Under the pieces are notes generated by a model, which saw only the letters and a list, made by a program, of their open reading frames with translations, was not told the DNA's origin and ran no database searches. A stretch of DNA of 64,000 nucleotides from the NCBI GenBank assembly GCA_964035575.1, contig OZ037834.1:1240001-1304000 (forward strand), written 5' to 3'. A program made the position numbers and the translations under genes. Source of the DNA: Rhynchopus sp. YZ270_cl-10 (taxonomy: Eukaryota). Shown here one piece after another: positions 1,779-55,039 of the stretch. Each line of letters begins with the position of its first letter. Within the stretch, counting starts at the first letter, position 1.

Positions 1779-1791
1779 ACAAAAAAAAAAA

Positions 1792-1860
1792 GTGAAGTTG
1801 ATAGTGCAAAACGCCCTCTGGGGCGCAGGGCACTGACACTCCGTGGGTTATCGAACCCCG
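1792..1860 (-). mobile_element. 69-nt 5'-truncated copy of the LINE 3' end (family D)
   Basis: Matches 37000-37065 including the last pol codons; A-tracts on both sides. Other copies at ~29961-30033, 44088-44142 and 54905-54960; variants at 53654-53714 and 60620-60668. Confidence 0.88.
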
Positions 1861-12307: not shown

Positions 12308-12348
12308 GTTTATAAGATGACCCTAAGCCTCTCGTGCTTAGTCACCTT
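12308..12348 (-). repeat. 41-nt hairpin element (family A), representative of roughly 30 copies
   Basis: Minus strand AAGGTGACTAAGCACGAGAGGCTTAGGGTCATCTTATAAAC then T-tract. Clear copies at 12453, 26188, 28308, 32124, 49447, 52694, 55544, 61544 and 62133. Confidence 0.9.
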
Positions 12349-14082: not shown

Positions 14083-14123
14083 ATGCAAACTTTTTTTCAA
14101 AAAAAAAAAAGGGAAAAGTCACT

Positions 14124-16406
14124 TAGTGGCCAAGTTTGTTGTACCCATTTAGGATAATACCCAGTGGGTATTATCCTAAATTATTTGGGTATTATCCTAA
14201 ATTATTTTGGGTATTATCCTAAATTATTTTTGGGTACTGGGTACTGGGTACTGGGTACTGGGTACTGGGTACTGGGTACTGGGTACTGTGTACTGTGTAC
14301 TGTGTACTGCGCGAGCCACACTCCGGCTCAGGTGCAGGCCAACGCTGCAGGGAACCCGAGATGCTGGCTTGTTGAAGGACACCGTGGGGAAGTTTTCGTT
14401 GCTGGAAACACCTCTACACCGCCCACTTTACGGTACTCACCTCAAGAGAACCGTCGCGAAATTCGTGAAGGACACCGTGGAGAAGTTTTCGTTGCTGGAG
14501 CGTTGTACCCCCACAGTGTTTCGTGCATTTGCTGTGCGAAAGTATATTATGTATTGCATAATATTATGCTGCTCGGCCCTGAAAGCTGTCGACTCGTATT
14601 TCCTCCAAAAAGTCTCCAGAACAATATTTTAAACCCTCAAGCCAACTTATTTTTTTAAGAAGTCACCTTCTTTAATTTCCCCACCACTCACAACTTCACT
14701 TTTAAACAGGTATCGCGAGTGCAGCATCGAGAACCAACTGTGCAGAACGAGCGCATATGCGGTGGAAAGGGTGGTGGGAACACTCTGTCAGTCACTGCTA
14801 TAGCCATTTAACCCAGGGAGCATAGCTAGTGCAAGAAATTCGACTTTGGAAACCTTCCGGAAAGTCTGTCCTCTGCTTACGGAGGACGAGGCACAAGAAA
14901 ATATTGCGTTCCCCCAGAAAACCAGTGCACAATTCACACTCCTTGTGGGTGGTCTTGTTGCCTTTTTGTCACAGTAATTTTGGCCCAGGCATGCTCTTGA
15001 AGCATGACAATTTAGTGTGTATGGGGCAGGGTGTTGTTTTGTTCTGAATTCTCTTTGTTATAACATCTAAGTCAATCGCGGGTGGTGGTTTGTGTAGCGT
15101 GAGGCACTCTTTTTAATAAACTTCCTGCAGTTGCTATGCACTGTTATTTCTTCGGATTTATCATCATACAGCGTAACATAGTGGATTCGCCTGGTCGACA
15201 CAACCTTTGATAGATACGGGATAACCAACCCCCTTCGACCCCTTGTGGGTTCACTGAACAAGCCCTAGTGGTAGTTAAACGCGATTGACATTTACATTCC
15301 TAGAGATGAAAGAACAAGATAACACTTCTGTACCCGCGCATCAAAATTGTGGAAAACTTTGCACCCCAAACACCCTCAACAACGCCCGCCAAAAGGCGCC
15401 CCTTGTTGCTGGGAGTTGGTTCTCATGATACCTGCACAGCGGGCATTCCTCTGAGTCCAACGCATGTTTGGCCTGTCTGCGGCGTTGTACTTAAGGTGCA
15501 CGAAGACTGGGTCTGGTGGTAAATTTTGCGTAGTACTGCGACGTGGTACTGCGTGGGTCTGGGAATTTGGGTACCTGGGTACGGGAAATTTGTTGTGGAA
15601 GACATCAACCACCATGCATTGAGGAGGGTAAGACAGTGTTCGCAGTTTCTACCTGATAGCATTACAACATTTAACTTCTCCACGGGGGTCTTGGGCCGTT
15701 CACTCGGTTCTACCTTGACTACCGGAAGATATTCTTGAGGCCTTTTTGGTCTCTAGAATATCCGGTCTTCCCGAACGGAGGCACACTTTGTGTGTTACTA
15801 CGACCTGGCAATTTCCAGCAGTAGGTTAAGTAATCTTTCTTGTAAATTGTTGGATCATTATCTCCTCAGTGCATGAATGCCCCACGTGACTGGACACTTT
15901 TGTGTTTGTCATGTGGAGCTGTGGTTGCTCTTTCACGACTTTTTTCCTGTTCCTGGGTACCTGTTCCTGGACCTGGACCTGGGTACCTGGGTACCTGGGT
16001 ACCTGGGTACCTGGGTACCTGGGTACCTGGGTACCTGGGTACCTGGGTACCTGGGTACTGGGTACCCAGTACCCAGTACCCAGTACCCAGTACCCAGTAC
16101 CCAGTACCCAGTACCCAGTACCCAGTACCCAGTACCCAGTACCCAGTACCCAGTACCCAGTACCCAGTACCCAGTACCCAGTACCCAGTACCCAGTACCC
16201 AGTACCCAGTACCCAGTACCCAGTACCCAGTACCCAGTACCCAGTACCCAGTACCCAGTACCCAGTACCCAGTACCCAGTACCCAGTACCCAGTACCCAA
16301 AAATAATTTAGGATAATACCCAAAATAATTTAGGATAATACCCAAATAATTTAGGATAATACCCACTGGGTATTATCCTAAATGGGTACTAGAAACTTGG
16401 GTACTA
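14124..16406. mobile_element. Foldback-like element with long, internally repetitive inverted arms
   Basis: The arms are reverse complements. Each has 3 units of GGGTATTATCCTAAATTATTT and a TGGGTAC array (8 units left; 33 CCCAGTA units right). Confidence 0.8.
15979..16298. repeat. Head-to-head satellites (CTGGGTAC)x10 and (CCCAGTA)x33
   Basis: Read directly; the arrays meet at the palindrome ACTGGGTACCCAGT (16057-16070). Confidence 0.95.
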
Positions 16407-20873: not shown

Positions 20874-23800
20874 AGTTTAGAGGGCCAACACCACCCTTTT
20901 TCCCCAACGACCTTTTTGATATGAGGGTGGAATGGGGTGTGAGGGGATGGGGTGGGAGAGAAGGAGGAGGAGGAGGGGGATGAAGGTGGGTGTAGTATCT
21001 GGTTGGTGGGTTTGAAGGGTGGGTGGAGGGTTTTGATAAGTTGTAGTAAGAAGAGGTTGGAGGAGGAATTTTTTTTTTGGAATAGTGTAATTTTGCCGTA
21101 CAATGCGCAAAATATCTCTCCAATTTTTATAATCTTTTTTGCTGTTGTTGTCTCGACATCTCCCGAGAACCCAAAAAAAAACAAAACATAAGGGGTGGGA
21201 TTTACGTATGGGCTTTGCTTCGCTGTGCTACACATATTTCTTTTTTTTCTTTGTCTTTTTTTTTTGTGCAGCAAAAAACCTCCTGCTTTTCTTTGCTCGA
21301 TTTTTTTTTTCTTCCAACGATTGTATCGACAATCATTTTACATCAGCTGGGTAAAGCTCTCTGCTGTCGGCTGAAAGCCTCTGTACTTTTTTTTTTTTTG
21401 TGTGTGCTTGTCTCCAAACACCCCCCCTACACTATCGCTGTATCTTTATTTTAATTTGCAATGTTTTCTGAGTTATATTTCTGTTATGAGATTCAATACC
21501 CCCCCATACACACACAACACGCACACAACACATCCTATCATTTAACAACCAAGAACTGTTTTTTTCCCCCTTTTTAACGGTTAGAGGAACTTTGAGATAT
21601 AACTAACTAAAGAGTTGCCCCACAAAAAAAACCCCACAAAACACAAAACACAAACCTGATAACTAACACACATAACTTCACCCCCCACAGCGACCCAAAC
21701 AGACTCTCCTCCTTTTTTTTTTTGAAAAAAATTGATGACAGTCAGCCACCACACGAGTGGTCTGTCACGCAGCCGTCATCTCTCCCCTTATCTCTGTTGT
21801 GTGGGTTCTCCGCTGCTTCCTCTTTTCGTCCCCACCTTTTTTTTTGAAAATACCTGCAGCGGTATGATGAAACATACAGTCTGATTAGATTACTTAATGT
21901 TTTGAACATTGGTTATTCAATCAATCTTTTTTGTTGATGAAATATGCAGTCACAATGACAGCACAAAAAAAGGGAAAGAACACCTCAATCCCGAAAGAGC
22001 GTTTACAGACATGAGACAGTTACGAATTCTCGTCTGACACTCCCTCCTCTTTGGGTTTATCGGCAACTACCCATGCATGAGAAGCGCGACACAAAATAAA
22101 ATAAAAAAAAAGCATCGTGTTCTGTTGTGCTGGGGTAATAATGCACGTTGCGCTAACCGTGAGGAGGGGAGAGAGAGAAAAAAGAAAGGTGAGCACAGCA
22201 GGTCCCTTCACTCAAAGCCATGTAAAAAATTGATTTTATTCTCTTTTTCCCCCCCTGCAAGTTGCAAGCTGCTTCAATCAAGAATCAGTGCAGGGGGGTG
22301 AAGAACTACCCATGTATCCCGTCTTCTCCTTCTGCAAGAGAAGAGGGAGGGTATTTTTGGAGGAAACTGAAGGGAAAAACCCTGAAAAAATGAATGTACG
22401 TCACTGTGTACACATCTTTAAAAAAAAGGGGGGGACTTTCACTCAAAAACTTCGACAAAAAATCAATCAAAAGATATAACCAAACCGAGGACTTTGCTAA
22501 GTCACCTTGAAAAAAAACAAAATGGTGCAGGCACCGACTGACCCACGTACGATGCCAGCCATCTGGATGAAAGCACAAAAAAATAAATGGCTAAAACTTT
22601 CGTGACAAAAAACCCCCGTTTTTTTTCACTAAGGTCAAAGAAAATGCACCACAAAAGACCAAAAAAAGCCAATCGTTGGGCTGTTGTTGGCCACCAAAAC
22701 AAAAATCTTGAGAAAAAAAAAATGGGTTTGCACACTTTTTTTTTTGTTTTCTTGCCCATAACAAAGGTGCAAAAAGAACAGATCTCACGGGCATCACACA
22801 TAACAAGAAAAAGGGTGGCCGTTCTCTAGACTAGACGTATCACTTCCCCTACCCCGTTTCCCCCGAAAAGGCTAGCAATCACATGTTTTTTGTTTGTTTT
22901 TGAAAACTTGGTTGTATTAGTGTAGCCACCCTAGAGTGTGCTCCACTATACTTTGTTTTTTGTTTTTAAGTAGACAGGGAACCTGCCACTGCTTGTTTTT
23001 TCCTTTTGAAAAAGGGGTCGGATCAGCTAATTTGTCAGCTAATTTTGGGTTAAAATTCGAAAAATTAGCTAACACCCTCGATTGGAGGCACATGATAGAA
23101 GCTGCCCCCATGCAACCACACCCAAACTCACACCATATTCCAAAGAAAAACAAAAATATAAGATAACCTCACATTTGCTTAGTCACCTGGGGGGAAAATG
23201 GCTTTTGCTTTCGGCCAAAAGCCACGATTTGACAAGAGGTTATATCACTTTGTCCATTTGAATGTCCCCCATACCCTAACAGCGATTCCCAACACAGTGA
23301 AAGGTGTGTGTTGTGAACCCAAAGCGACCTGCGCAGAACCCTGGTCTCTCAGTTTTTTTTTGATAAATTGTTGGAGTAGTGTAGTTGCCTCAGTTGTATC
23401 TAAATTCACCTCAGCTACCCCACATGAGGTAAATTAGGGTCAGTACTCAGTATTGGCCGAAGCCTTTGTACTACGGAAGGTAGACGCCTTTTTTTTTTTT
23501 GCGAACAAAGGCTAAACCAGCTAAATGAGAGTTTGGGTGAGGCTGGGGAGGGGGAGGGGGGGGAAAGGGAAAGAGGCAAAAACAAACAAACAAACGCACA
23601 GAACAGCAACAACACAAAACACCCGCCTTGCAAAGCAGAAAACCCCATGGGAAAAAAAAACAAACAAAAACAAAACAATGAAACTAGGGCGTAACCCCCA
23701 TTTCCCCCATTTTTTTTACGTTGGCCCGAAAAAATGGGATTTTTTTTTTTTTTTGTGAGAGACGAGAAAGATAAAATATCCCTACATTTTTTTTTTTTGT

Positions 23801-26620: not shown

Positions 26621-27990
26621 TCCACCTGAATTAGCTGGGTGTTGGGAGGTGTTGGGAGGCGTTGGGGGGCGTTGGGGGGTGTTGGCGGGCGTTGGGAGGT
26701 GAGGCACTTTTTTCCCCACCGGCGTGAGCCTTTTTCTCGTTGGTGAAGTTTTTTAAACACCTGCATTGTCATTTCCGGAATCCGTCCTCGCTGTGGTGGG
26801 GTCAATTTGCCGAAATGGACAAGTTCTGAGTACATACGTGATCAATTTTCTCACACTGCACAGTATACACAGTATACACAGTATACACAGTATACACAGT
26901 ATACACAGTATACACAGTATACACAGTATACACAGTATACACAGTATACACAGTATACACAGTATACACAGTATACACAGTATACACAGTATACACAGTA
27001 TACACAGTATACACAGTATACACAGTATACACAGTATACACAGTATACACAGTATACACAGTATACACAGTATACACAGTATACACAGTATACACAGTAT
27101 ACACAGTATACACAGTATACACAGTATACACAGTATACACAGTATACACAGTATACACAGTACAGTACAGTTCTCGTTTTTGGTCAATTTCCGCACAGTA
27201 CACAGTACACAGTACACAGTACACAGTACACAGTACACAGTACACAGTACACAGTACACAGTACACAGTACACAGTACACAGTACACAGTACACAGTACA
27301 CAGTACACAGTACACAGTACACAGTACACAGTACACAGTACACAGTACACAGTACACAGTACACAGTACACAGTACACAGTACACAGTACACAGTACACA
27401 GTACACAGTACACAGTACACAGTACACAGTACACAGTACACAGTACACAGTACACAGTACACAGTACACAGTACACAGTACACAGTACACAGTACACAGT
27501 ACACAGTACACAGTACACAGTACACAGTACACAGTACACAGTACACAGTACACAGTACACAGTACACAGTACACAGTACACAGTACACAGTACACAGTAC
27601 ACAGTACACAGTACACAGTACACAGTACACAGTACACAGTACACAGTACACAGTACACAGTACACAGTACACAGTACACAGTAGCAGTACAGCACCAGAG
27701 GTCGGGATTTTCCCTTGGAGGGCGTCTACATTAATACATTTTTCGCTTTTTTCCCAAATTTCCACTTTGCCTTTGCCACTATTTTTTTGTTTGACTTGGA
27801 ACCGGGACCCCACCCTGGAACCCCCTCCAGAAGGGGGTACAGAACACCCTCAAAAAAAAAAAATCCCAAAATTCGGGCTAAATTGGAGGGGTGTTGGGAG
27901 GTGTTGGGAGGTGTTGGGAGGCGTTGGGAGGTGTTGGGAGGGCGTTGGGAGGCGTTGGGAGGGTTTGCCGTTTTTTGCAAATCAGGTGGA
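26621..27990. mobile_element. TIR element (TCCACCTGA termini, 4-bp TSD) carrying satellite arrays
   Basis: TCCACCTGAATT ... AAATCAGGTGGA; CAAA on both flanks; subterminal GTTGGGAGGY repeats near both ends. Confidence 0.75.
26861..27678. repeat. Satellites (CAGTATACA)x33 at 26861-27157 and (CAGTACA)x69 at 27196-27678
   Basis: Perfect tandem arrays, each preceded by a similar TCAATTT...GCA header. Confidence 0.97.
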
Positions 27991-28725
27991 CAAAGCAAGA
28001 AAAAGAACAGAACAGAACAAAACAGCATGCCAAGGTGAGTAGGGTTGCACACACCTACAAAAACTGGGGCGATAATTCCTTTTTAAAAAGGCACAGTCAT
28101 TCCAACTTTTATTTTTTCTTTTATTTTTTGTGCGGGAAATACGTTCAGGGATAGCAGCCTGTCTTTTTTATTATTTGCACAAAACACCTAGAAATAGTAA
28201 CGAGGACTTGCCGAAAGGAGAAGAATCCGGCTGGGCCCTTTTTAAATACATCAAAGGGTTGTTTAAGGCTGAATCGTGAATCTCACCGATTAAAAAAAAA
28301 AAGAAAAGTTTATAAGATGATCCTAAGCCTCTCGTGCTTAGTCACCTTAAAAAAAACTTTGAAAGATGGACACTAATCTTACAACACAACTGCAAGAGCA
28401 AAACCACAGAAAGAGAATAGCTAGTTTCTTTTTGATGAGATTAAGTCTCAAGTACTTAGTCACCAAAAGGGAAAGTTGGATAAGGTGGACACCCTCCCAC
28501 CCAAAAGAAAATTGCAAGACGGATTGAAGCCCGTCGCCTATCGAAGCCCAAATGGACCTGTATGAATTTACTGAGAGCATTGGTTTACCATTCGTTTTTT
28601 TTGTTGTATCGACAATCACCTTTACGCCTACTGGTATAAAGACATGTACTCAATGGCCGAAGCCTGTACTACAGAAGGAATAGATGCAAATCGCCCGTTT
28701 TTTTTTTTTTTTTTGATAAATTGTT

Positions 28726-29354: not shown

Positions 29355-30746
29355 AATTGTTGAGTAGTGTAGTTGCCTCGGTTGTGTTGCCACAGTTGCG
29401 CAAATCTCCACTTTCCAAAAGTTTTTTTTCTGCCGTTTTCATGGACACATCTGGACCCCCTCACCTGTTGCAAAAAAAAGATTTGTAAGGTAAAACCTAA
29501 GCTCCTGTTACGTTACCGTTGAAACAAAACAAAAAATCTTGTTTAATTTTAGACTACTATCGTGGGATAGCAGCCAATTTTTCTTCAAAAAAAAGAAGCA
29601 AAAAACAAAACAAAAACAACAATGCTAACATGCAGACACCTCTTTTTGAATGCAGGCACGTGAAGAATAAAGTAAAAACAAAACAAAACAAAAAATAAGG
29701 GGGAGGGAGGGTTGTTACAAAGGCACCTTTCGCGTGGCTTTGTGGTGTTGAAGAAAAGACAACCGTAGGCAGTACACGAGCTTCCAGAAGACACGTCTCA
29801 ACTCGGGCAAGGCTAAACCAGTAAGGGAGGGATTAACGTCTTGCGGGTAGGGATGTGGTCTGGAAAGCGTGTGCACTTTTGTTGTGTCGACAAAATCACC
29901 TGCTAGTGCAGGATCTGTACTCAATGTCGCCCGAAGGCTACTGTTTTTTTAAAAAAGAAAGTGAGGTTGACAGTGCAGCTGCGCTTCTGGGACGCAGGCA
30001 CTGACACTCCGCGGGTTATCGGATCACGGAGTGTTCCACTTTGGAAGAAAAACAAAATGGTAGAATGTGTGATGGAAGTCAAAAAAGAAATGGGCAAAAT
30101 AAAACAAAAACCCCAAAACCAAAACAAAATCGCAAAAAGTATTTCCACAAAAAAAAAAAAAACATCCCCCCTTCCCCCTCCCCCTTTGCCCCCGCTCCGC
30201 CATGAAGGCAGAGACAGCAACAAGGTGCCCTGCGCCTGGTCTGTGTCAGGTCAAAAGCACAACTGCAGCAAAACAAAACACAAAAAAAAAAACAACACGG
30301 ATCTCAAAAGTAAAGAAATACGCACATAACATCACACATACAATGGGCGATGCTTCGCTCTTAGGAACTACCCGCATTTGCTTTCAAATGCACACATCGG
30401 TAGTGGCCAGTCTACAAGCAACCCCCGACTCTTTCGGACATTTTGAGTGCATCTATTATTATATTTTTTTTTGACAAAAAAAAAAACATTTTGTCAAAAA
30501 CTAGATTATATAAAGTGAAGTTCATAATGAACAATTATTTGTATTAAAAATTCATGTGCTTTTGATTCAAGAGAACAGAAAAGCATCTTCACGTAAAACA
30601 ATGCGCTCCGTGGCTACCGGATCTCCACGGGAGAGCGTGCGAAAAAAAAAAAAGAAGTAATAAAACGAGATGTGGGTCACCATTTCCCACCTTCAATTTG
30701 TTCTTTTTTTTTCCTTTTTCTTCTTTTCCTTGAAAACTTTTTTTTT

Positions 30747-34990: not shown

Positions 34991-37052
34991 TTTTTGCTTT
35001 TTTTAGAGAAAATGTTGCATAAAGAGAAGCGAGACTGCGAGAAGGGGTATAGGGGATTGGGGGAAAGCACGGAAAAAAAAATCAAAACTGTGTATGAAGA
35101 GAGAGAGAGATGCCGGTAGGGGGGGGAGAAATGTGTGTGGGTGTGTTTTTTTTTGCTAGGGTGGTGTTGTGGGGGGGTATTCTGGGAGGGGATGAATACA
35201 AAAAAAAGTGTGAAGAGGGCAATGAGAGTCTCAGAGTAAACCTTTCATTCCCCCTAACCATAGTAAAAGTAGAGTTGAAATACAACAGCCCTCTCATGAA
35301 CAGTGTACCTTTGGTATGACTGGCTGTACCGGGAGGTGGACACCCCCAACCATGCAGTCCTACATTCCATTTCGTGGTTTATATCTGAAAGAAGGGAGGG
35401 TGTGAAACACTGCGAAATGAGAAATAAGGGAGGGGCTTTTTTTTTTTTTTTTTTGAGATTTGGAGACAATGGAAGGTACTATGCTCCTTTTTTTTTTTTG
35501 AAAACTTTGACAACGTGTACCCCCACCAACGGGCAATCCACGTGACCCGCCCTCCCTTGTTCACGTTTCGTGGAAACCACTGACAATGGAAGGTATTATG
35601 CTCCTTTTTTTCTGTTTTGGGTTTTGGATTTTTTTTTTTTTTTTTTTGTTTTGTTTGTGTTTGGTACTAAAACCATCCCTTCCCTCCACTACTAAGGGGA
35701 TATAATAAAAAGGGGGGCTTTCCGTCCTCGCTCTTCGTCATGTTAGGCGTGTTGTTTGCATGCATTGGGCGTTTGCGTGCAAAGGAAAAGGATTTTTGTG
35801 ACCACAGAACAGCCCTCACAAATTAAAGAAAATGCTATCAGAACAAAACATAAAGCCCTCTCCCGTGCTCCTAGTCGCCTCGGAACATAATAAATATTGA
35901 TTTGAAATACAAAGCCCTCGAATATTGTACCTTGGTATGACCGGCTGTACCGGGGGGGTGGACACCCCCCAACTATGCAGTCCTACATTCCATTTCGTGG
36001 TTTACATCTGATACAATAAAATACATCTGTTTTTTTTTTTTTCAATTCAGGAGAACAGTAAGTACTTGTGAGGGGGAGAAAAAATAAGGTGTGCAGTTTC
36101 AGTCACATCCCCTGACGGTAAGGAATAGAAGTGTTTCGTATACTTTCAAAGTCAAACAAGAGAAAGTACAAAGAACGTTATATACCCCCTACAAGAAAAA
36201 TAGCAACTCTGATAAGTAAAAGCACGTTGATTGCTCAATTACCCTGTTGGAGGGGGTGGGTGATTTGGCGACCGTATATCAGTGTATATCGGAAGAAACT
36301 ATTTCTCCTTTTAAGCTACACTTTGTAGAAGGAAAAGGCTGAGAGACGGAGCGGGAAAAAAGGGGGGTGGGACAAAAACACACAAAACAAAACCTTTGAA
36401 AAATGCATGATCATCGCTGTGCACACATATCTAGATACAACAAAAAAAAAGAACGACACAAGCACAACGTAACCCGTACCAAACACCCCCCATTTTATTT
36501 TGTTTTGCTAGAAACGTAACAGCAAAGGCTTTTGCAGCTCCAATAATAGAGACCCAATTTCTTTTTTTCTCGCGATTCTTTTTTTTGTATTTTTATATGT
36601 CCCCCGGCACAGCTTCTATCAATTACGGAGAATTTTGTTTTGGAATTAACTCGTTCGTTTTAATCTCTCGCTCCATCTTCGTAACATAACATTCTCAGAA
36701 AAATCGGCAGGAATAGCAGAGTTGCCGTGCACGACAGTCTTTGCACTTTTTTTTTCTTTTTTTTCAAAAAAAAAAGGGGGGTATCAAATATGGGAGGCAA
36801 GCCATTTGTGGTCTGTGGTTTTGTGGGTCAAATTCACCCGTTAAACACATGGTTCTGCACTTTAAAAAAAAATATGTTAGGACGATGAATCTAAGACTAG
36901 TATGTTTTAGTCCACCGTACCAAAAAAAAACCAAAAAAAATTCTGATAGACTACTCTCACTCACGGACTGCTATCACCCCACCTTTCGACCAAAAAAAAG
37001 TGAAGTTGATAGTGCAAACGCCTCTGGGACGCAGGCACTGACACTCCGCGGG

Positions 37053-40000
37053 TTATCGAACCCCGGAGTGATGTGCATGGGTGTGGTTTACAGGGAAGCT
37101 GTAAGCAGGTATACAGTCATTACCCCACCCTGATCGGGAAGGGGGGACAGCATGATTTAAAGATTCAAGAAAAGCACGTGTTTTGGCACACAACACTGGG
37201 CGTCTGCTGAATCCGATGAGCGCCGGGGCGCCGACGGAACGGAGGGAGTGCACACGATCCCTCTTCACACCAGGGAATGGGGCGCGGCGGAGATTCGCTG
37301 TTAAAGCTCGCATGTTAGCCTTGACGATGAGCCTTTGCATGACCCGCCCACGTTCACGGATATTAGAGGTCTGTTTGGCGAGGAAGACCCTTGTGCGCAA
37401 TTCGAAGTCGACCGCGAGCTCGACACACGACACGTCGCGGGGTTCTTTGCTCCACTCGAGCGTAATCACCCACCACAGGAAAGCTTTCAAAGTGAACGCC
37501 TCCCTATAGCTGGAGGAAAAACTAGGCCGTAGCTTGGTCAGGTAAGTGCGGAAGGGGGTATCGCGTTTAGAGGCAGCAAATGTGAGATTCCAAGGATGTA
37601 CAGCCGGGGCCACATCCGTTGGATTTGAGAGGGTCGTGTCGATCGTGGTGACGGCATCGAGGAGAAGAGACTGTACCGCCTTCACCGCCACCTTGTTCAC
37701 ATTGGAGGGCACAATGCCGTGCAGCACAAATCAGGTGGGCAGCCCCTTGCCATAGAGGCTGATGGCCGACGCATGTAAGGCAGTGAACGCCGCTGTGTGG
37801 ACAATGCTGCAGTGCCACAGTAGGTGGCGTGTGTGGCATGTAACCTGGATGAGGCACAAGGGGCATTTATCGCTGAAGTCTGCCTCGGGTAAGCCACTGC
37901 GCTTGAGCCCTGCTGGATGGCAGAAGAGGACTCCGCCACACAGAACACGTCGCATCCGGAAAGCCTTGAGGGGGTCGTGGTACTGTAGGGTGTGCCACAG
38001 GGCATTGGTGGCGCGGGTGTCAATGCCGTCGCTTATGCCGTCGTACGTAGGGCGTTTACTCTGCAGATCATCCCAGACCGCCGTACGCGCCAGAGCTCGC
38101 ACTTCATGGGCCCTCTTGGCTTTGTCTGTCCCGATGATGGGGATAGTCTTCGCGGTTGCAGACGTAGACGTCACTGCCCTCATCTCAGGGTCCCAACTCA
38201 CGTCACATCTGCGGGAGGCGGCGAGGACAGACCCCACTGGACCAACTGCATGCATAGGTGTACCCCGGGTTGCCAGGGTCTCGTACCTCTCTCTGATGCT
38301 CATGCACCTCTGGCGTATGGCGTCATTGCGTTCCACACTGGCGGCGTAAGCTCTGAACGTCCTGCATATTGCACTCGAGAGGGGGTGTGCCACGTGCGCC
38401 TTCAGGCAGAGTGTGAGCAGTGCATCCACTGAACGAGTAAGGTAGGTGGGGCCCCAGCAGCACATCGCCACCGCCGTCGATAATTCATTCATCACTGACT
38501 GAGGGGGCATGTTGAAGGCGGACTCATATAACACTGAAGGGAGGATGGCAGAAGTGGCGATAGACACCTTCTGGGAGAAGGAGAGCTGTGTCGCACCCAA
38601 ACATGAGAGCGCCCTAATGGCTGACTGGTATACCGTAGCGTTGTAGCGCCCCTTGCTCCGTAGGGAGCTGTACATCATCACGCCAAGTGAGCGAAGCGAC
38701 TTAGTTGTCTGGAACACATGATTGTCCTCAGACTTCAGCGTGCATTTGTGGTTCTTCAGCGATGAGAAGGCAAAGGTCTTCGCCATGTTGAGGCGCATGC
38801 CTGTGAGGCGGCAGAAGTCCTCCACTCGCAACAGACACGCCCCCACCGAAGCTTCGCTATGGCGAGACAGAAGGTATGCGTCGTCAGCAAACGACCGTAC
38901 AAACGCCTCAGGTACCTCCGCCGTGATGCAGTGCGTCAGGACCGACATCAAGGCGTTGATGAGCACCACAGAGAGTGGGCACCCCTGCAGGATCCCATTC
39001 GTCACGGAGTACGCCTCTCCTACGCCGGAGGGCAGCTTGAACCGCCGTCTCAACGTGGCGTACATCGCTCGTATAGGTGTCATGATCCTGGGGTGAAGCC
39101 CCATCTTTTCAACAAGATCTAAGGTGAGGCCTTGCGGTACGCGATCGAAGCATTTCGCAAAGTCTAGTGCCAGTCCGTGTAGCGGTTCGCCACCGAGCAG
39201 AGCGTCCTCCATCTGTGTGAAGACGTCATACAGGACATCGTTCGTGCTGTGCTTTGGGCGGAAGCCATGTTGCGACGGGTGTGCCCATTGTTCCTGCCAT
39301 TGTTGAACTGCCTGCAGGCGTGCGCAGGCCCATAACCGGTATACCGCACTGGTCACAGTCACAGGACGTAGCTTCAAGGGGGACTGGTCTTCGCCTTTGG
39401 GAAGGAGCGTCACCAGGGCGGTCAACAAGGCTTGTGGCCACACACCGTTCGTTTCTATCGTGTTGAACACTCGAGCAAAACCTTCCAGTATGCATAGGGG
39501 CATCGCATGAAGTTCCAATGAGCGCCAGCCATCAGTTCCGCAGGCGTCCGTGCGCTTACCTTTCCTGTCGAGCGTTCTACGCAAGTCAGCACCACTTAGT
39601 GGGTCTAGGGACATCGGGGAATTTGCGACGAAGCTGCCGAAACGTTGCTCGAAAGAGGCGAGAGTTGGCTCGGGATGGTCGTGGTCGTATAGGTTGAACA
39701 CTGACTTCCACTCATCACGCAGTAGTTTGTCCATCTCCCTGTGATTGGCCGTAAGCACACCGTCCTCTCCCCGAAGGGCGGAAATAGGAACACCCTGTTT
39801 CCCCATGCACCACGCTGTGAGTTTCCGTCGCTCGCTGCTAAAATCCACCTTCAGCTTGGTGGTGTACTGCTTCTCGCGTTGTAGCCGGGTATTGCGTATC
39901 TCGAGGTTCATAAGCGCCTTGGACTTGTTCAACAGAGAGTTAAGGATCTGTAGCTGCTTTTCGAGCGCGGGTGGGACTGTCGTCTCCTCGGACCTCAGCA

Positions 40001-41495
40001 ACTTGAGCGTGACTGCGGTGCGGAACACTTTACCCCAGGCGTTACGCACAGGATTCTCCATCACCCCACCAGGACAAGATTCTGTCTTCGCAATGAGGTC
40101 CGTGAGCTTATACTCAAATTTGGCAAGTTGGTCCTGTCGGGGGGAAGACCCACCAACAGACGCCGGTCGCGTAGGTGCACACACCGGTTTCAGCACAGGA
40201 TGGGGGATCTTGGAGCGGCCGCAGAACCCTTTGGAGAGCGTGTCACCAGCTGCCTTTGCCGCGAGCAGGAGAAACTCTTCCCCAGCCAGCGCGATCGCTT
40301 CCCACGCATCGTCAATGTCACCGGACGCAAGTGTAGCGGCACAGTTGTGTTGTTGTAGAAGGTTCTTGCCGACTGTCTCAGCATTCGCCACCGTCCCAAG
40401 TTCCGGCATCTGTTTGGGGATGGTATACCGAAGTGTCGACTCTGTAAACACAGAGAGGCAGAGTCGCACGTTGACGGACTTGTGGCTGGGGATGCAGTTG
40501 ATACGATGTGTCCAACAGCTATGGACGGCATGTGCAGCGACGCTGTTCAGCAAGATGTAATCGATACGGGTCCCTGCTGAGTCTTTGCGGGTGAACGTGG
40601 CAGGGGGCTTGCCGTCATCCCCAGTGCTGCCCAGGAGCGCGACGTCGCACCAGTCCTTGGCGAGTGCTTTCCGCAATGTTGGTGATCTTTCCACATCAGT
40701 GTTGAGGTCGCCGCACACAATCAACGGAACGTTACCCAGGGTTTCTCGAAACTTCACAAGCACTGTGTGGAGGAGTTCTTCGCGTGCAGCAACTGTAGCT
40801 CTTGGCGTGTCACCTGACGGGGCGTACACATTCACCACATGCAGGAACAGACGGCCGGAACCAAGCGCTACGCGCGTGTGCACCACACGTTTCCTCAGCT
40901 CGGGCTTCAGAGAAGACGTCAGTTCGGTGTCCAGGAACATGATGCCCGGTCTCTTCAGCATGGTGGCCACTCCCCCACGTTCCCCAATGTGTGGACTGCG
41001 GAGGCCATGGACGAGTGTGCCATCCATGGGGGGGCCCCATTCTGGAGACCAGACTGTGGTGAAGAAGTCGTTCATCTCCAAGATCTTGGACTCGGTCAAC
41101 TTTGTCTCTTGTAGACACACTATATCGCACTTCAGGTCGCGTATGATATGTGCGTAGTTCTGTAGGGATGTGCAGTTGATGGTGGTTAGCGTGAGGGTGT
41201 TCTCAGCAGCGGAGCAGCACGTACGCGAGGAGGAGGATCTATCCGTTGAAGAGGAAGAAGAAGAAGCAGAGGTAGAAGAAGATGTGTCTGAGAGTGACGG
41301 GGGGAAAACGGGGCGAGGAGAAAACGATGCCAAGGATGATGATGATGATGATGATGATGAGGAGGAGGAGGAGGAGGTACGGTTTGGGAAGTGGCGGGGA
41401 CCAGGGCGCGTTTCGATGCACTCGCGAGGAAGCTGCTCGTAGTTGTAGGCGGCGAGTGATTCCGGAAAACGCTTCGTGCTGTTGGTGTGGGGGAG
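37053..41495 (-). CDS. LINE pol region: APE endonuclease + reverse transcriptase + C-terminal domain (one internal TGA at 37731-37733)
   Basis: APE motifs TINC, CLQETK, GDLN, RIDY. RT motifs LRPV, QHGFR, LDFAKCFDRV, GILQGCPLS, FADD. CPLC...HLLWHC. The same frame continues past the TGA as FVLHGIVP to the TAA at 37053. Confidence 0.9.
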
Positions 41496-43127
41496 TCAGT
41501 CGCGCTTAGGTGACGAGGCCGCCCCGGTGAATTGAGGGCGGGAGTAGTCGTGGGATTTACCGTCCTGCGCATTCGGGATGTGGATGGCTCCCTTGAACTG
41601 CCTCATCTTGCGTGTGGGCCGGTCCTCCGGGACCGTCTCGCGAATGAGCAGGGGTTCGTGATAGTCCCCTCGCGCTATCTTCGTGAACTGGGGTCGTTCC
41701 TGTGCGCACACGATGATCACATGCTGGCGTTTCTTTTTGTATGAGGAGACACACTTGCAGTCGAATCCCGAAGCCTGGAGGGTTTTGACGATGTCCTCCC
41801 TCAGCTCGTACTGGCGCGCTCCGAGGACGGTGTACTTCATCGCCCGAGGGTCCATCAACGGCGTCACATTGTTCACCCCAATGTCGTTGACCGCCTCCGC
41901 TGTCGCGTAGTTGTTGGTGAGGCGGATGCCGAGGCCCCCCCCGCTGCCGATCACCAGTCCCAAGGTGGTTTCCTCATGGGAGTTGCAGAACTCCCACGCG
42001 TGGTCCATTGTGAGGGCCCGGTCAAGCCACACCACTGCGTAGAGGTCCGGCTGATACGGTACGTGGGACACGGCTGTCATGAACAGCCCCTCATGGCCGG
42101 AGAGACGTAACAGTGGTGCCAGGCGTTCGTTCTTAACCCTCAGCTGGATCGACAGCTGGTAGTCGTTGGTCCTCACCTTCCAGACGTCCCTAGGCCCCGG
42201 GGAGAAGCCCGCTTGTTTGCAGCGGGTGGTGACGAGTGAGCCGAGCTCAGCAGTCGGATTCGCCACTGCTCGCGTCCACACATCCGCGTGCACTACGTGG
42301 GCCTTCGACAGGATGAGTGCTACGATCGTTGTAGACGTCTGGTTGTTCACACTGGTCTCGCGGCATACCTCTGGGGCCCATGTCCAGGTGGGGGTGCGGC
42401 ACACGAAGAACTGCCTGCGGGTGTAGCCGGTTTCGGCGTCGGCTTTTCCCTGTACAAGGGTCGTCACAGCGTCGGCGCAGAACTTCGTCTCGCAGAGGAC
42501 GGCGCACGCAATGCTCTCCTTGCGGTCGCAGCGCCTCTTCACGCGTTCCCACGCCTCTTGCGCGCTCTTCTTGTTGGTGGCGAGGAAGGTCCCCGCTGGC
42601 TGCACGTCCAGCTCTGCCGCATCAGACACGATGGCGGCGCCGAACTGTTTCGGCTGGACCATCCACAGAGGGGCGGGGGTGGCGAACGGCCCCTTGCGGC
42701 GTCTGACCACGTCGGTCCACGTCCCGTTCTGCAAGTGCACGGTGCCTTTGTGCTGCTTGCTGGTGTCGCTGTTGTTGCGGTAGTTGTTGTTGTTGTTGTT
42801 ACTGTTGTTGTTGTTGTTGTTGCGGTGGTTATTGTTGTCGTTGTTGTTACTGCCGTTGTTGTGTTTGGCACTGTTGTTGCTGTTGTTGTTGCTGTTGGTG
42901 TTGCGGTTGATGTTGTTCGCGCTGTGTTTCATTGCATTGGTGGTGGTGGTGGTGGTAGCGGCGGCGCCCTCCCTCGTCACAGGCACCTCCGTCTTCGTCG
43001 TCGTACCCCGGGCCCCAATCATGTCCAACATGATATCTAGGATTTGCAGAATCCTGTCCCGGTCTTCGTCCGTCCTTGCGCTCTTACTGAAGCGCCTCGC
43101 CTTCTCGAGCATAGCTTCATAAGACAT
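41496..43127 (-). CDS. LINE ORF1-like protein (543 aa, Asn-rich low-complexity segment)
   Basis: ATG at 43127 (MSYEAMLEK) downstream of a C-rich CAG; directly upstream of, and in frame with, the pol region. Confidence 0.75.
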   Translation of the reverse strand: MSYEAMLEKARRFSKSARTDEDRDRILQILDIMLDMIGARGTTTKTEVPVTREGAAATTTTTTNAMKHSANNINRNTNSNNNSNNSAKHNNGSNNNDNNNHRNNNNNNSNNNNNNYRNNSDTSKQHKGTVHLQNGTWTDVVRRRKGPFATPAPLWMVQPKQFGAAIVSDAAELDVQPAGTFLATNKKSAQEAWERVKRRCDRKESIACAVLCETKFCADAVTTLVQGKADAETGYTRRQFFVCRTPTWTWAPEVCRETSVNNQTSTTIVALILSKAHVVHADVWTRAVANPTAELGSLVTTRCKQAGFSPGPRDVWKVRTNDYQLSIQLRVKNERLAPLLRLSGHEGLFMTAVSHVPYQPDLYAVVWLDRALTMDHAWEFCNSHEETTLGLVIGSGGGLGIRLTNNYATAEAVNDIGVNNVTPLMDPRAMKYTVLGARQYELREDIVKTLQASGFDCKCVSSYKKKRQHVIIVCAQERPQFTKIARGDYHEPLLIRETVPEDRPTRKMRQFKGAIHIPNAQDGKSHDYSRPQFTGAASSPKRD

Positions 43128-43236
43128 ATGATGATTGATTTTTTTTTTTGTTTTGATTGATCTGTGAGGGGGGGGGAGGGGGGGGGAGACCCCACGGCCG
43201 ACACGCCCGAGCGGAACAGCAAGCGTATTTGACGAC

Positions 43237-43275
43237 CAATGAAGTACAGAAACTGTAGCTTTAGAAATCGTTGGT
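43237..43275 (-). other. Genomic copy of a diplonemid-type spliced-leader exon
   Basis: Minus strand reads ACCAACGATTTCTAAAGCTACAGTTTCTGTACTTCATTG, close to the Diplonema SL as I recall it (AACCAACGATTTAAAAGCTACAGTTTCTGTACTTTATTG). A partial duplicate CCAACGATT precedes it. Confidence 0.9.
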
Positions 43276-45569
43276 AATCGTTGGAAAAAAAAGAAAAGAA
43301 AAAAGGCTGACAAGATGAATCCAAGTCTCTCAGCTTTGCCACCTTTGTCACCTTAAGAAACACAGAAAAAAGTTTGTAATGTTTAGTCACTAAACAACAC
43401 ATCATCTTTCGGCTAATTGACCCGAAAAAAAAAAAAAAAAGCTCCACTTCACTATCGACAATACACAACACTGCAACATTCAGACGCAGATAACGGGTTC
43501 TGCTTCGGGATGCCAAAATACAGTCAGAGAAGAAGAATAAAAAGTTGAAAAAAGGAATGTGCCTTGATGTACACACATTTTTAATAGACGCAGAATTTCT
43601 TTTTGATACAACAGTTCAAGGAGAGCGAAGATAAAAAAGACTAATTTCATTACTTTCCGTTCAAAGAAGAGAAAGCAGAGAAAAAAAAAAAAAAACGGTA
43701 AAGATGGAAAACCCGACTCACCTAAAAAAACTGTAGCGAGCAAAAAAAAAAAAAAAAAAGAAAAAAAGAAAATTGTAAGATGCATGTGCCTCTCATGCAC
43801 ACACACATCTAATAATCGCAATAAGCCTAGAACAAAGTCTACCCCATTGTACTTCCCCCCGTTTTTGAGTTTTTTTTTTGGGGGGGGGACATTCTGAGGG
43901 GTTCCTTTCCAATTATTTAAAATAGTTGGGGCTAAAGGGTGGATTTGTTTGCCACTATCACGTACATTTTTTTTTACGTCCTCCATCATGCACTGATTTA
44001 AAAAAAACGATTTGAAAGCGAGACTGATGGAAAGATAACGACACATACTTTTGGAATATGGTGGAAGGACACACAAAAAAAAAAAAGGTGAAGTTGATAT
44101 GTGCAAAAACGCCCTCTAGGATGGACACTGACGCTCCGTGGGAAAATAGCAAACTGTCTCCACCCCCCTGAGGGCTGTACTTAGTGAGTTGGTTGCAGGT
44201 GGATGTAAAAAAAAGTGTCACTTGTCGTTCCCTCACCCCCCTTCTTGTAGTTGTTTGATGCGTTGACGCTTCCACACACACTAAAAATCACCTGTTGGGT
44301 GGTGGTGTTGCGGAGCACGGTTGGGTGAGTGAACGACGTGACACTTTCCGCTCACAAAGTAGTGTGCGTAAAAAAAAAAAAAAAAAAATGGACAAACAAA
44401 CAAACAAAACTTGCAAGATGAATATAGCCTCTCATGCACACACATCTTTCACAAAATGGTAGTTGTTGCTGCAGGCACACCTCCGACTGACCTACGTACG
44501 ATGCCCAGCCATCCGGATGAAAGCACAAAGAAAAAAAAGCAGGGTTTTGGGAAATGAAATTTATCAAAAAAACTGGGTCTGTGTTTTCTTTCATTATTTT
44601 TTTTTTTTAGGGTACTCTCACTTTTTCTTTTGTTTCTTGTCCCCGCCCGCTCGGATTTTTCAGGGAGGGAAAAAAAAAAAAGTGGGCAAAAAAAAAAAGT
44701 GTACAGGGTTTCCACCAAGGTGGACCGGGGTGGGACCATGCCCACCCCATTATTTTTTCCAGAAAAATCCGGATTTTCACAGGGTTCGGGGGGTATATGG
44801 TGACCCCCGAGAAAAATGGGGTTTGAAGGTTGTAGATGACCCCCCGTGGTCATGCGACCAGAGCATTTGGCACGTTGTAGCCGGGCAAGTAGTGGAGTTC
44901 ATCCTCGGGTGTCTACACTAATACAACCAAGTTTTCAAAAAAGAAAAAAGTAGTGTACCGTGCGCCTGCGGCGCTGTGTTGCTGACTACTGCAACATCCC
45001 CGCAAGGTAGAGAACTGCACGCTCCAATCTGAGCCCCACGGTGGAGAGCAATCAAAAGAAAATGGCACGAGTAAAAAAAGTTGGTAACGTGAGCCTGCGG
45101 CGCTGCCCCCCCTTTACCTTACACTGACGGGTTTTGACCAAAACCAAAAACTTGTCCATTTTGGCAAATTGGCCCCACCACACAACGGACGGATTCCGGA
45201 AATGCAAATGCCGGTGTTTTCGGGCACTTTCGTGTTTTCAGACGTCAGGATCAGGGAGAGAAAATCTGGATTTGGTCAAGGACAAGAAACAAAAGAAAAA
45301 GTGTGAGTACCCTTACCTACATTCTAGGACAGTTCATGTCGAAGAGGGGGGAGGGGATATTCATTTCTTTTTCTTTCGTCGAAAAACCAAAGCAAAGAGA
45401 AGCGGTACATCTCTTGCTTGGCGTTCTAAAGGGGTGAGTCAGATGCCAAATTCCTTTCTTTTCCCTTTTGTTTCATTTTTTTAGTTCGCCACATTCCTCG
45501 CAAAAAAAAAAATTTAAAAAAAAAACAAAGAACAGCCATTTTTTTTAAATTTTTGCAAGAACAAAAAAA

Positions 45570-51334: not shown

Positions 51335-54300
51335 TTTCTTTTGTGAAAGTTTTGCGGGAAGAGAGGGGGAAGGGGGAAGGAGGGAAGGGGAAGGGGGGTT
51401 TGAGTAAACCCGCAAAGATCTGAAGGGTGCGAAAAAAGGGTGGTGGTGGTGAGGGATTTGATGCATCAAAAAGTGAATTTGCCGTGAATAGAGAAGCTCT
51501 GGGGGTTGTGGAGGTACAGAACAAAAAAAGTTGGCTTGAAATACAACACAGCCCTCGGTGAGAAGGAGTACGGTGCCACGAGGCAATCCAGGGTGGTTTT
51601 GGAGTCTCATCAAGAGGGCGAATGTATTTTTTTTTTGTTTCGGTAGTAAAACAAAGTGAAGTCATGCAGGCACACCTCCGACTAACCCACAGTACGATGC
51701 CATCTGGATGAAAGCACAAAAACTACCCTGCGGCCAACAGAAGAAGAATAAAGATTAAGATATCATTTTCAATCGAAAAGATGGAGTTTTATCAACAGAA
51801 GAAGAAGAAGAAGAAGAAGAAGAAATAACAAAATGGGGGTGTCCTTGCATTTGAGTTTAAGATTCTTGGATTTTTTTTTTAGGAGGTTTTTTTTTTCTTC
51901 TTTTTTTTTTTTTTTTTGCCTTGGGGAAGAGCACAAAGGGGGGGGAAAAGAAAAGACTATAACAACAGTTGGAAAGGTTGAAGAAAAGAAAAGAAAAAAC
52001 AAAAAAACCAAAACGGAAAACTTTTTTTTGAAATGAATGGATGCGGTCTTGATACTAGACTTGACACATCTGAACGACGATGATATAAAAGCGAAGAAAT
52101 AAAACTGTAGCGCACCACCAAAAAGGGTTTTTTGAAAGATGAATTCTGCCTCATCTACACCATCCTTCAAAAAATTTGACAAATCTTGATTTTTAAGACT
52201 CACGAAAATAGCATCCAAAACTTCAAAAAAAAAAAAGGGGGGGAAACGTGGACACGATGGCCAGTTTGATGTGGGAGAGCGTCAAAAAAAAAAAAGTGGA
52301 CGAAAATACTGGTTGAGAATTACTCTCCAAAAAAACGTCAAAATTTTTTATGCCCTCCCGCTCAAACTGGCCACCGTGGAGGGGGGGGCGGAGAAGGGGG
52401 AATGAAGAAAGGTTTTATAGGAATCTATCTAAGCCTCTCATGCTTAGCCAACCTGATCACGAATCGTTGTCGAACGAACTAGCAATGGTAATCAATGGAA
52501 AATGCTCATCCTATACGAGGGGAAAAGACGGTGGGGAAATCGAAGGGGTGTCGGAACACCCGTGTAGTGGGGGAATTGACAAAAAATCGTCAAGAGAAAA
52601 GGAAAAAGAAAAAAGAAAAAAAAAAAAAAAAAACTAAATTTCATATACTTTCTTCAAAGAAAGAGAAAGCACACAAAGAAGAAAAGAGAAAAAGTTTATA
52701 AGATGAACCTAAGCCTCGTGCTCAGTCATCCTGGGAAGAAAAAAAAAATTAGATTCATGTACTTTCCATTAGAGAAATAGAAAAGCAGTTGAGAAAGAAA
52801 ATACCATACTTAAAAGATGAATCTAAGCCTATCACGCTATAGTCACCCAAAAGAAGAAAATAAAAAAAAAAATCTGAAAGTGCGAGCATCTCTGCAGACA
52901 CAGGCACTGCTGAAAAAAAAAATAAGGGAATGGTTATTAATGCAGACACCCCAACTGACCCACGTACGATGTCGGCCATGGATGAAAGCATAAGTACCCT
53001 CAAAAAAAAAGGGGGGGTAGAACGACAAAATGCTCGTGGACCCACCTTCAAAAGAGAGAGAGAAAAGTTTAACAATCCCAAGCAAAAGGCGATCTGTAGG
53101 GTAGAGAACTAATACCGTATTCGTAAAAGAATTATCGATCGTAACAAAGGCTGAACTACCAGAAAAATCTTGAAAAAGGTCGCACATTTATACGATTGAT
53201 ATAATTTTTGTACGAATACTGTAAAAATAACAAAATAACAAAATAACAAAATGCAATTTAAATACCAACTCATTCTTGACCTTTTGGGTAACCAGGCGAC
53301 GCCGGCCAAAAGTAACAACCCAGAATGAGAGCAGTTTACCCCCCTTTTTTTTTCAAAAAATAAACAAATAAGGAAATTCATCCCTTTCCTCTCATCACGC
53401 TTATGCTTTTCCCGGTCTGTACTGAACGGGAAATATGCTTGTATACCAAGCGCATGCTGAGACATACGGTGGAAAGGGTTTAGTCTCCTTAACACGAAGC
53501 GCACACAGAAACAAGAACCATACGTAGAGAAAGAAATAAAAAGAAAAAGAGAGAGAGAAAGAGAGAGAGAGAGTGTGTGTGTGTTCTCTATAAAAGCGAA
53601 GGGTACAAATGTTTTGTCACGTTTTGCAAAAAATGAAAAATAAAAAATAGAGAGAAGTTGAAAGTGCAAGCGCCTCACCGTATATCGGCGGACGCAGGGC
53701 ACTGGTTCTCTGGGTAAAAAAACAAAACAAAACAAAACGAGACGTGCTTTCAAAAAAAAAAAAAAAAAAAAAAAACATTTTTTTTTTGCTAATACCAATG
53801 CACACCATGGATTCATCAGGACAATACGAGCGTTATGACGTCGTAATTACGAGGGGGGTGCCCGCGTCATGACGACGTATTGCGATAATTTCCCCACGTT
53901 TTTTCCTTCGTCGCTCGTCACGTAATGTCCTTACGAGTCCATGGTGCAAACACCCCGAGGGGTGGTGCACTAATACTATTTAAAAAAAATGCGCTTTTAT
54001 GAGATGTTGTGATTGATTTTTTTTTTTTTTTTTTTTTCTCTCCTCCTCTTTGCTTTTTTTTTTTTTGAGATCGCGTTCTATACCATATCAGAAAAGGGTA
54101 ATATTACACAGGGAAAAAGAAGAAGAAGAAGAAGAAGAGGAAAAAAAGGGTTGTAAGATGAATGTGCCTCTCGTGCATACACACATCTACAAAAAAAAAA
54201 AACAACCGCAACAGCAGTTGAGAGTATTGCCTTGGATGTGTCAAGAATCAGATTTAAAAAAAAAAGAAGAAAAAGAAAACGACTTCAGGATATGACAATT

Positions 54301-55039
54301 TAACGAAAAAGAAAAAAAAAACACTTTTTTTTTTTCGGTTATCGCACCGCAAAAGGCTTTGTGCATTTTTTTCACTGCAGAATAATGTGTGAGGTATGCG
54401 TCAGTGAAGAAAAAACCCAATCCTCTTAGACGGGCACGCACCATCCGTCGTTTTCCATTTCTATTTCGGCAATGTTAGATAAACCCCCCCCAAAAAAAAA
54501 ATTTGTGTTGTCAACCGCTCAAAGCATAGGGAGGGGAGGGAGCAAAGCGAAAGCCTTGTTCCTAGTCAGAGTGCTCTGCGGAGTGAAGGTGTTTTGTTTT
54601 TTTTTTTTTGTTTTTGTTGTGTCGACAATCGCCGAGTAAACCCACCAGGTGGGAGAATTCGGGTCTGTACTATTTTTTTTTTTACATTTTATTTTGCAGT
54701 GTCCCCCTCCCCCCCCATCCAAGAGACGTTGATTTTTTTTTTTTTTGTGCAAAACCCTTCATCGGATCAACAAAACAAAGTGAAGTTGATAACGTACAGA
54801 GACACCTCTGGAACCTCATCCCACCTTTATAACAAGCTGCAAAAAACCTGGAAAAGGCTCCGTTCAAAAAAAAAATTCGCAATAGAAAAGAAGAAAAAGA
54901 AGAAGTGAAGTAGATACTGCAAGACGCCTGTAGGGGGACGCAAGCACACCAACATTCTGTAGAGGTTCTCGAAACCCCCCAGAGTGCTGCGAGAGCTGTA
55001 CTATCCCCCCCACCAGAGCGCTGTATTACAGATTTGCTT

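Follow-up and report, generated by a model that had tools for sequence, protein, structure and literature searches.

How did the exon of a spliced leader (SL) come to form the first bases of a retrotransposon copy? The question is raised by an element on the minus strand of the window (the whole 64-kb stretch of DNA analysed here), which the original prediction explained by reverse transcription of an SL-capped RNA to its very end. The order of features it gave for the minus strand, T8, then CCAACGATT, then a 39-base leader, was found correct on re-reading. Two features had been overlooked: the absence of leader base 1 from this copy and the presence, directly behind the leader, of a 75-base GT...AG segment with a strong acceptor. 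The 5' end is made up as follows.

43285..43292, minus strand: T8 run at the 5' junction, read from the sequence; the flank is similar to repeat family C
43276..43284, minus strand: 9-base duplicate of leader bases 3-11, CCAACGATT, private to the window copy
43237..43275, minus strand: spliced-leader exon, bases 2-40 of a 40-base diplonemid-type leader (39/39 identity to the SL RNA gene of contig L001)
43162..43236, minus strand: 75-base GT...AG segment with a GC-rich part, a C-rich pyrimidine tract and CAG; the same peptides are found in sister copies
43162, minus strand: predicted internal splice acceptor, with 24/25 pyrimidines before AG
43128..43161, minus strand: A-rich 5' UTR from the internal acceptor to the ORF1 ATG, read from the sequence

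The leader was matched to L001, the sole locus returned by one leader-pattern scan of metagenome contigs. There the SL exon is 40 bases long (one extra A in front) and is followed by a GT intron, with donor GTATGG, and a T run. Because this locus is clustered with U5, U1, U2 and U4 genes, behind which it is located, and has the order exon, GT intron and T run, it was taken as a real SL RNA gene. The 39 bases in the window are bases 2-40 of this exon and the 9-mer corresponds to its bases 3-11; L001 is an environmental contig and may be from another species than the window's host. The U5, U1, U2, U4 and SL RNA genes of L001 lie head to tail, all inside 1.5 kb (positions 163-1617), unlike the SL-5S-U2 units described for Diplonema papillatum (PMC10161547). 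Within the 64-kb window the leader core has a single exact match (mean chance expectation 1.38 when up to three mismatches are allowed). Named relatives of ORF1 and ORF2 of the element come from Diplonema japonicum and D. papillatum, and since the relatives of both ORFs and the leader type are diplonemid, the host was taken to be a diplonemid. A euglenozoan leader with the same start is presumably that of Diplonema. The published sequence of that leader differs in length by one base and by two substitutions (PMC3795323).

A continuation of the leader into the SL intron would have pointed to a chimera with an SL gene, as the original prediction had pointed out. Only the GT matches the L001 intron: the leader at the 5' junction ends at the exon border, as in an SL-tagged retrocopy. 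The idea that the 75-base segment is a diverged SL intron was dropped, as 117 of 500 shuffles score equally well against the L001 intron. The 3' junction contains no SL sequence, as had been claimed, and consists of T8 (36999-36992) behind two hairpins. With a 3' side free of SL and with T tracts of intergenic repeats as flanks, the element is not an SL-gene insertion of the SLACS/CRE/CZAR kind, again in agreement with the first reading. The T8 at 43285-43292 forms the end of a T-rich tail belonging to an older, short repeat of family C and is likely the left copy of a target-site duplication; T8 is found on both sides of the element, where tail and target-site duplication are indistinguishable from one another.

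The element spans 43284 to 37000 (6.3 kb), with two ORFs and T8 on each side. The remainder of its sequence contains the following features.

41496..43127, minus strand: ORF1, 543 aa, N-terminal part Asn-rich; distant relatives include Diplonema papillatum proteins
37053..41495, minus strand: ORF2 frame of 1480 codons, continuing the ORF1 frame after one TGA codon
41397..41465, minus strand: degenerate 2A-like peptide at the ORF2 start, RPGP in the window copy and NPGP in the relative P0002
40533..41165, minus strand: APE-type endonuclease domain (PF03372, E 1.1e-14)
38679..39380, minus strand: reverse transcriptase domain (PF00078, E 5.1e-22)
37731..37733, minus strand: premature TGA in ORF2, read through in sisters
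37000..37070, minus strand: 3' terminal segment with two predicted hairpins, common to short 5'-truncated copies in the window
36992..36999, minus strand: T8 tail or right copy of the target-site duplication, read from the sequence

The order of an APE endonuclease and then a non-LTR reverse transcriptase identifies the element as a LINE. The best solved match in a profile search with the reverse transcriptase region is human LINE-1 ORF2p (E 2e-44), a match that gives no clade placement. ORF1 matched no Pfam family above the cut-off. Its terminal TGA (41496-41498), present in all six members of its cluster, separates it from the same-frame ORF2, in which no ATG precedes the endonuclease domain; from the sequence, production of the ORF2 protein would need stop read-through or reinitiation. 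We take the RPGP/NPGP peptide at the start of ORF2 to be a 2A-like motif. The premature TGA probably makes the window copy inactive. Nine longer sister proteins continue past this position, and since sisters have Cys there, a recoding of TGA as an amino acid is unnecessary to account for the stop. No RNase H match was obtained at E up to 1 in P0028, P0031, P0002 and P0045; one was found only in the distant P0009, whose cluster (17 members) represents a distant LINE, 1991 aa long, in which an OTU protease domain is followed by APE, reverse transcriptase and RNase H domains.

The ORF2 cluster comprises 37 members. Among the 15 listed, four are at least 99.2% identical to the window copy, one of these probably being the window copy itself, and most others are near 94%. 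Searches for related proteins found no close ORF1 for the 94%-identity subfamily (P0001, P0015-P0018), whose 5' half may have been swapped. Copies with the common 3' end are dispersed and many are 5'-truncated, the truncated proteins having foreign N-termini.

Sister copies were read via predicted proteins whose gene calls run through the 5' end. The ORF1 cluster has six members, including P0068, which equals the window ORF1 and is probably the window copy itself. The predicted proteins P0065 and P0070 extend across leader, 75-base segment and UTR, each starting from a flank of its own that is absent from the window; P0066, P0067 and P0069 start at internal methionines and, being uninformative on the leader, are outside the counts of three given here. 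The same leader head and GTCGTC junction are present in 3/3 readable full-length copies (window, P0065 and P0070). As the same leader stands behind unrelated flanks in the sisters, it was not part of an empty site, contrary to a possibility that the original prediction had allowed for. The 9-base duplicate is missing from both P0065 and P0070 and therefore arose in the window insertion; its restriction to one copy rules out a CRE-type cut behind base 11 as its origin. It is compatible with slippage at the 5' end, in line with the earlier suggestion of re-priming. In both sisters, the residue ahead of the leader peptide rules out leader base 1: the position is occupied by C in P0070 and probably also by C in P0065. 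What stands of the proposal that an SL-capped RNA was copied to its very end is that the template was headed by the leader; copying itself stopped at base 2. ORF1 is identical across the three full-length copies, which therefore stem from one recent burst, and the leader-headed copies possibly descend from a single source copy. The window element can be described as a full-length member of an APE-type LINE family that is young and dispersed and has a spliced-leader head.

Further searches for the leader head were negative within their scope. A leader-derived peptide query (3 candidates) gave no match at E up to 10, in a low-power search of cluster representatives only; the leader peptide was not found in the 40 proteins P0071-P0110, each of which begins at its own Met; and no related elements with DNA context were found in the viral contigs searched. 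A 3.8-kb fragment of a related LINE (L133; 33% identity), lacking the 5' end, occurs in an archaeal genome bin, most likely as eukaryotic contamination.

The 3' terminal segment of the element is also found alone, at the following places in the window.

1784..1860, minus strand: copy of the 3' end only, flanked by runs of T10 and T11
29953-30033, 44080-44142, 54897-54947 and 53644-53676: further tail-only copies

The last 70 bases of the element fold better than any of 200 shuffles (z -3.88). All five tail-only copies in the window are on the host gene strand and are followed by T-rich runs. At protein level, 8 of 9 junctions, picked by eye, have at least two Phe among the last six flank residues, compared with 10% of background windows; three truncated proteins of a distant RNase H family, which lack a Phe-rich junction, are excluded from this count as belonging to another family. 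Several families of dispersed repeats of 40-90 bases, nearly all on the gene strand (e.g. 12293-12353, 28293-28353, 1707-1792, 44453-44539, 655-726 and 22898-22952), are present in the window and are probably tail-only copies of other retroelements. One of them, family C, has 13 T-tailed copies, all in the sense of host genes (P 0.0009 when compared with how T runs are divided between the strands), and the full-length element is inserted into one of these tails. Tandem arrays of a 7-base unit with a common palindromic end (14120-14312, 16004-16406 and 27193-27683, two of them inverted) are possibly DNA transposon ends or satellite. A frame of 1428 codons at 2327-6613 on the minus strand includes, in this eukaryote, two stretches of PqiA (paraquat-inducible protein A), a family that is mostly bacterial.

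The segment between leader and UTR bears directly on the nature of the copied RNA. The 24 pyrimidines out of 25 ahead of the predicted acceptor at 43162 are reached by only 5 of 3395 AG sites on the minus strand, and its CAG, 34 bases ahead of the ORF1 ATG, resembles C-rich candidates upstream of host genes. This acceptor is retained in 3/3 full-length copies; the copied RNA was therefore unspliced at that site. In other words, the reverse-transcribed template began with the leader and kept the internal acceptor. The GTCGTC behind the leader is a poor donor, unlike the GTATGC of two host kinase introns. The exons after both of these introns begin with GTC (n=2), and that following one further candidate host intron, from a heuristic scan, with GAC; the GT behind the leader is compatible with the start of an acceptor exon. 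Shuffled versions of the 75-base segment fold as well as the segment itself (z -1.5). The SL intron of D. papillatum is also 75 bases long (PMC10161547). None of the three copies contains a leader relic, such as would remain had a DNA-borne leader been spliced at either of its two internal AGs.

The reading to which we give a probability of about 0.5 is that a single source copy, trans-spliced at an upstream site, gave the copied RNA its leader. It is favoured because the junction is the exact exon end and because trans-splicing is the ordinary route to translatable RNA in such cells. The source would be a single recent copy, oriented with host polycistronic transcription and having an acceptor just before GTCGTC, and its RNA would have been trans-spliced 75 bases ahead of the internal acceptor that the element itself carries. 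The leader-capped RNA would have been translated and then reused as a template, primed at a genomic T tract. The reverse transcriptase would stall at leader base 1: the first base of the trypanosome cap is hypermethylated and blocked in base pairing, and the diplonemid cap is assumed to be similar. Four bases of trypanosome leaders are methylated (PMC4783070). During the window insertion, the stalled cDNA end might have moved back by 10 bases and copied bases 11 to 3 a second time before being joined to the T8 target: a cDNA stopped at base 2 could re-pair at bases 13-16 through four contiguous pairs (one wobble) with a terminal mismatch, and synthesis resuming at base 11 would give exactly the duplicate observed. 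Of 38 slip registers within the exon, the one at base 12 shares the top rank, and it comes third when all 117 over the leader are compared; this supports such an origin of the duplicate without being unique to it. By keeping the internal acceptor, daughter copies could yield leader-capped ORF1 mRNA from read-through transcription, with a promoter of their own unneeded.

A trans-splicing source fits the identity of the exon with that of a real SL RNA gene, with no SL intron continued beyond the GT, and the finding of leader, 75-base segment and UTR behind unrelated flanks in P0065 and P0070, with leader base 1 excluded in both. It also fits the GT as the start of an acceptor exon (host kinase introns having GTC behind them and GTATGC as donors, n=2), the host gene sense of the five tail-only copies and 13 family C repeats, and the slip register at base 12 being among the best. 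Leader-tagged retrocopies provide a precedent (PMC5585692), and a similar proposal has been made for flatworm retrotransposons (PMC12582326). Several observations weigh against it, however. No source copy with an AG ahead of GTCGTC was seen. A source resembling the daughters would need to use as acceptor the TG closing its own leader copy and to pass over two AGs inside, and no leader relic is visible in 3/3 copies; the strong internal acceptor, which simple trans-splicing would often use, is unused in 3/3 copies. A GT after the exon is equally expected from a cut-off SL gene or a splice donor. The C at the position of leader base 1 in P0070, and probably in P0065, hints at a shared start encoded in DNA; and with ORF1 identical, the three copies represent one burst, not independent tests of the route, and are so similar that a leader gained anew in each round would look the same as one passed on in DNA. 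Finally, giant viruses demonstrate that a DNA-encoded leader is a workable strategy.

This last point comes from viral contigs found to contain leaders. A contig of 237,777 bases (L002-L005, L033, L135, L139, L144 and L145) has at least 10 full leader exons of diplonemid type, a count that rests on the stretches fetched. These leaders start with both A bases, have no intron and stand behind an AAAAT(T)GA motif, at 17-18 bases in the copies measured, and mostly 34-64 bases ahead of a long ORF; a VLTF3 gene adjoins the leader at L003. AAAAT(T)GA is the early promoter of Bodo saltans virus, for which independence from trans-splicing has been inferred (PMC5871332). The contig suggests that a giant virus infecting diplonemids carries the leader of its host in hard-coded form. 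The leader-headed gene at L003 (about 590 aa), with a weak C-terminal methyltransferase match, may encode a capping enzyme. One diplonemid-type leader is present in a second viral contig (L129/L137), and one full leader of kinetoplastid type, without the AAAATTGA motif, precedes a 242-aa ORF in an AT-rich viral contig of 110,227 bases (L131/L141, about 1480-1540 of L141). Two further leader matches, in phage-like contigs, were discarded as chance matches.

By analogy, the leader could be an inherited head encoded in the LINE's DNA, with an internal promoter driving transcription from the leader onwards; transposition would then use the unspliced RNA as its template, and the mRNA would arise by use of the internal acceptor, either in cis with the GT behind the leader or in trans. 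This would account for the kept acceptor, the GT, the missing relics and the common start in 3/3 copies (for the acceptor and the GT, at least as well as a trans-splicing source does), and the internal Pol II promoter of L1Tc is known to work in a euglenozoan LINE (PMC1874656). Against this, GTCGTC poorly matches both the host donors (GTATGC, 2/2) and the SL gene donor (GTATGG), the 75-base segment shows no folding beyond that of shuffles, and the leader peptide appears in no more distant relative, though none of these reads upstream of its own start. We consider the idea unlikely but keep it because the giant-virus contig, with the same leader type hard-coded behind promoters, shows such leaders to be viable. 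Equally doubtful is its fuller version, a self-renewing LINE in which the host SL exon, as a DNA-encoded head, is fused via the 75-base intron-like segment to the element's own acceptor. The kept acceptor and the GT would be explained at least as well, again, by a source copy sitting inside an SL RNA gene behind exon and GT and co-transcribed from the SL promoter, whose daughters would carry a 5' transduction. The 41 consecutive bases of exon plus GT matching L001 agree with this, as does insertion of the element at T runs that frequently precede a G (TTGGT forms the exon-intron border), and a strong promoter would account for one dominant, near-identical burst. The intron match, however, ends after 2 bases, the enzyme is of APE type, the copies are dispersed in T tracts and none of those read is joined to SL intron, and we would give such a source only a rather small chance.

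The duplicate shows that the enzyme is able to re-prime on leader sequence, and end-to-end template jumps are known for R2-type enzymes. The reverse transcriptase might accordingly reach the 5' end of the element RNA at GTCGTC and jump, at every insertion, to a free SL exon or SL-capped RNA. A junction that is base-identical in three copies would be rare for chance jumps, however, and no self-cleaving ribozyme to generate such a 5' end was found with Rfam or with our own descriptor, used without a positive control; this route appears improbable. It is hardly credible, lastly, that the leader already existed in the target and that TTGGTCG, which occurs at both junctions (43239-43233 and 36993-36987), is the true target-site duplication. 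Sisters at other loci (P0065 and P0070) have the same leader and GTCGTC junction, both of which consequently belong to the element, and this rules out TTGGTCG as a target duplication; moreover, T8 flanks both ends, and the 3' flank is unlike an SL intron (455 of 500 shuffles score equally well).

Whichever way the leader was acquired, the family differs from known systems. The SL-tagged retrocopies of dinoflagellates (DinoSL relics) likewise have a 5' DNA copy of the leader that marks a reverse-transcribed mature RNA; they tag host genes and their leaders are mostly worn or stacked relics (PMC5585692), whereas here the autonomous LINE itself is tagged, with a leader that is intact from base 2, free of relics and followed by the kept internal acceptor. 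L1Tc, ingi and RIME are likewise dispersed euglenozoan LINEs with APE and reverse transcriptase domains and a 2A-like peptide, and likewise must preserve their 5' end in a trans-splicing cell. Their RNAs are unspliced, with a Pr77 promoter/ribozyme start and a poly(A) end, and RNase H is encoded (PMC1874656, PMC5814959, PMC12278014); the unspliced state has been termed general for trypanosomatid LINEs (PMC1874656). In the window family, by contrast, a leader forms the head, there are two ORFs, the tail consists of T and no match to RNase H was obtained; the first bases are the SL exon where the INGI clade has Pr77 as the first 77 bases. An HDV-like ribozyme was found at the element neither with Rfam nor with our own descriptor, which was not validated by a positive control. 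In the CRE clade (SLACS, CZAR and CRE1/2), too, SL sequence adjoins a non-LTR element. CRE elements have a restriction-like endonuclease, lie inside SL genes and end in poly(A) (PMC12278014, PMC5814959), whereas the present element has an APE enzyme, T-tract targets, a T8 tail and a 3' side without SL. CZAR and SLACS insert after leader base 11 (PMC5814959), the base at which the window duplicate ends; its presence in one copy only fits slippage. Judged by these sequence features, the window element is neither an ingi/L1Tc nor a CRE-clade element.

SL fragments have been reported beside retrotransposons in Perkinsela (PMC5601477), and SL pieces with retroelements in flatworms, where integration of trans-spliced retrotransposon RNA was suggested (PMC12582326); neither report, as far as covered here, describes a base-exact, full-length junction common to sister copies, as found in the window family. 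LINE-like ORFs are listed in the D. papillatum genome paper, which leaves their analysis for later, and no SL text was found in seven of its supplements (PMC10161547). No description of a leader-headed LINE in diplonemids was found in the literature covered, which mostly excludes subscription journals. The family is a clear departure from the euglenozoan LINEs studied so far, built from a known process.

Trans-splicing removes everything 5' of the acceptor, so that a LINE risks losing its 5' end in each round. The studied trypanosome LINEs escape this loss through unspliced RNAs; the window family, with a leader-headed template, a kept acceptor and insertion into sense-strand T tracts, represents another outcome in the sister group and a concrete, testable case of retroelement persistence in polycistronic, trans-splicing genomes. 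In diplonemid assemblies, such copies are at risk of being misread as SL genes or mRNA contamination. The heads of the copies would also record where, in vivo, a LINE reverse transcriptase stops on a leader cap, at base 2. Should the LINE instead prove self-renewing, its unspliced RNA would be the genome and its spliced RNA an ordinary-looking mRNA, a retrovirus-like switch made from host trans-splicing parts, and it would be using the same trick as the giant viruses of these protists.
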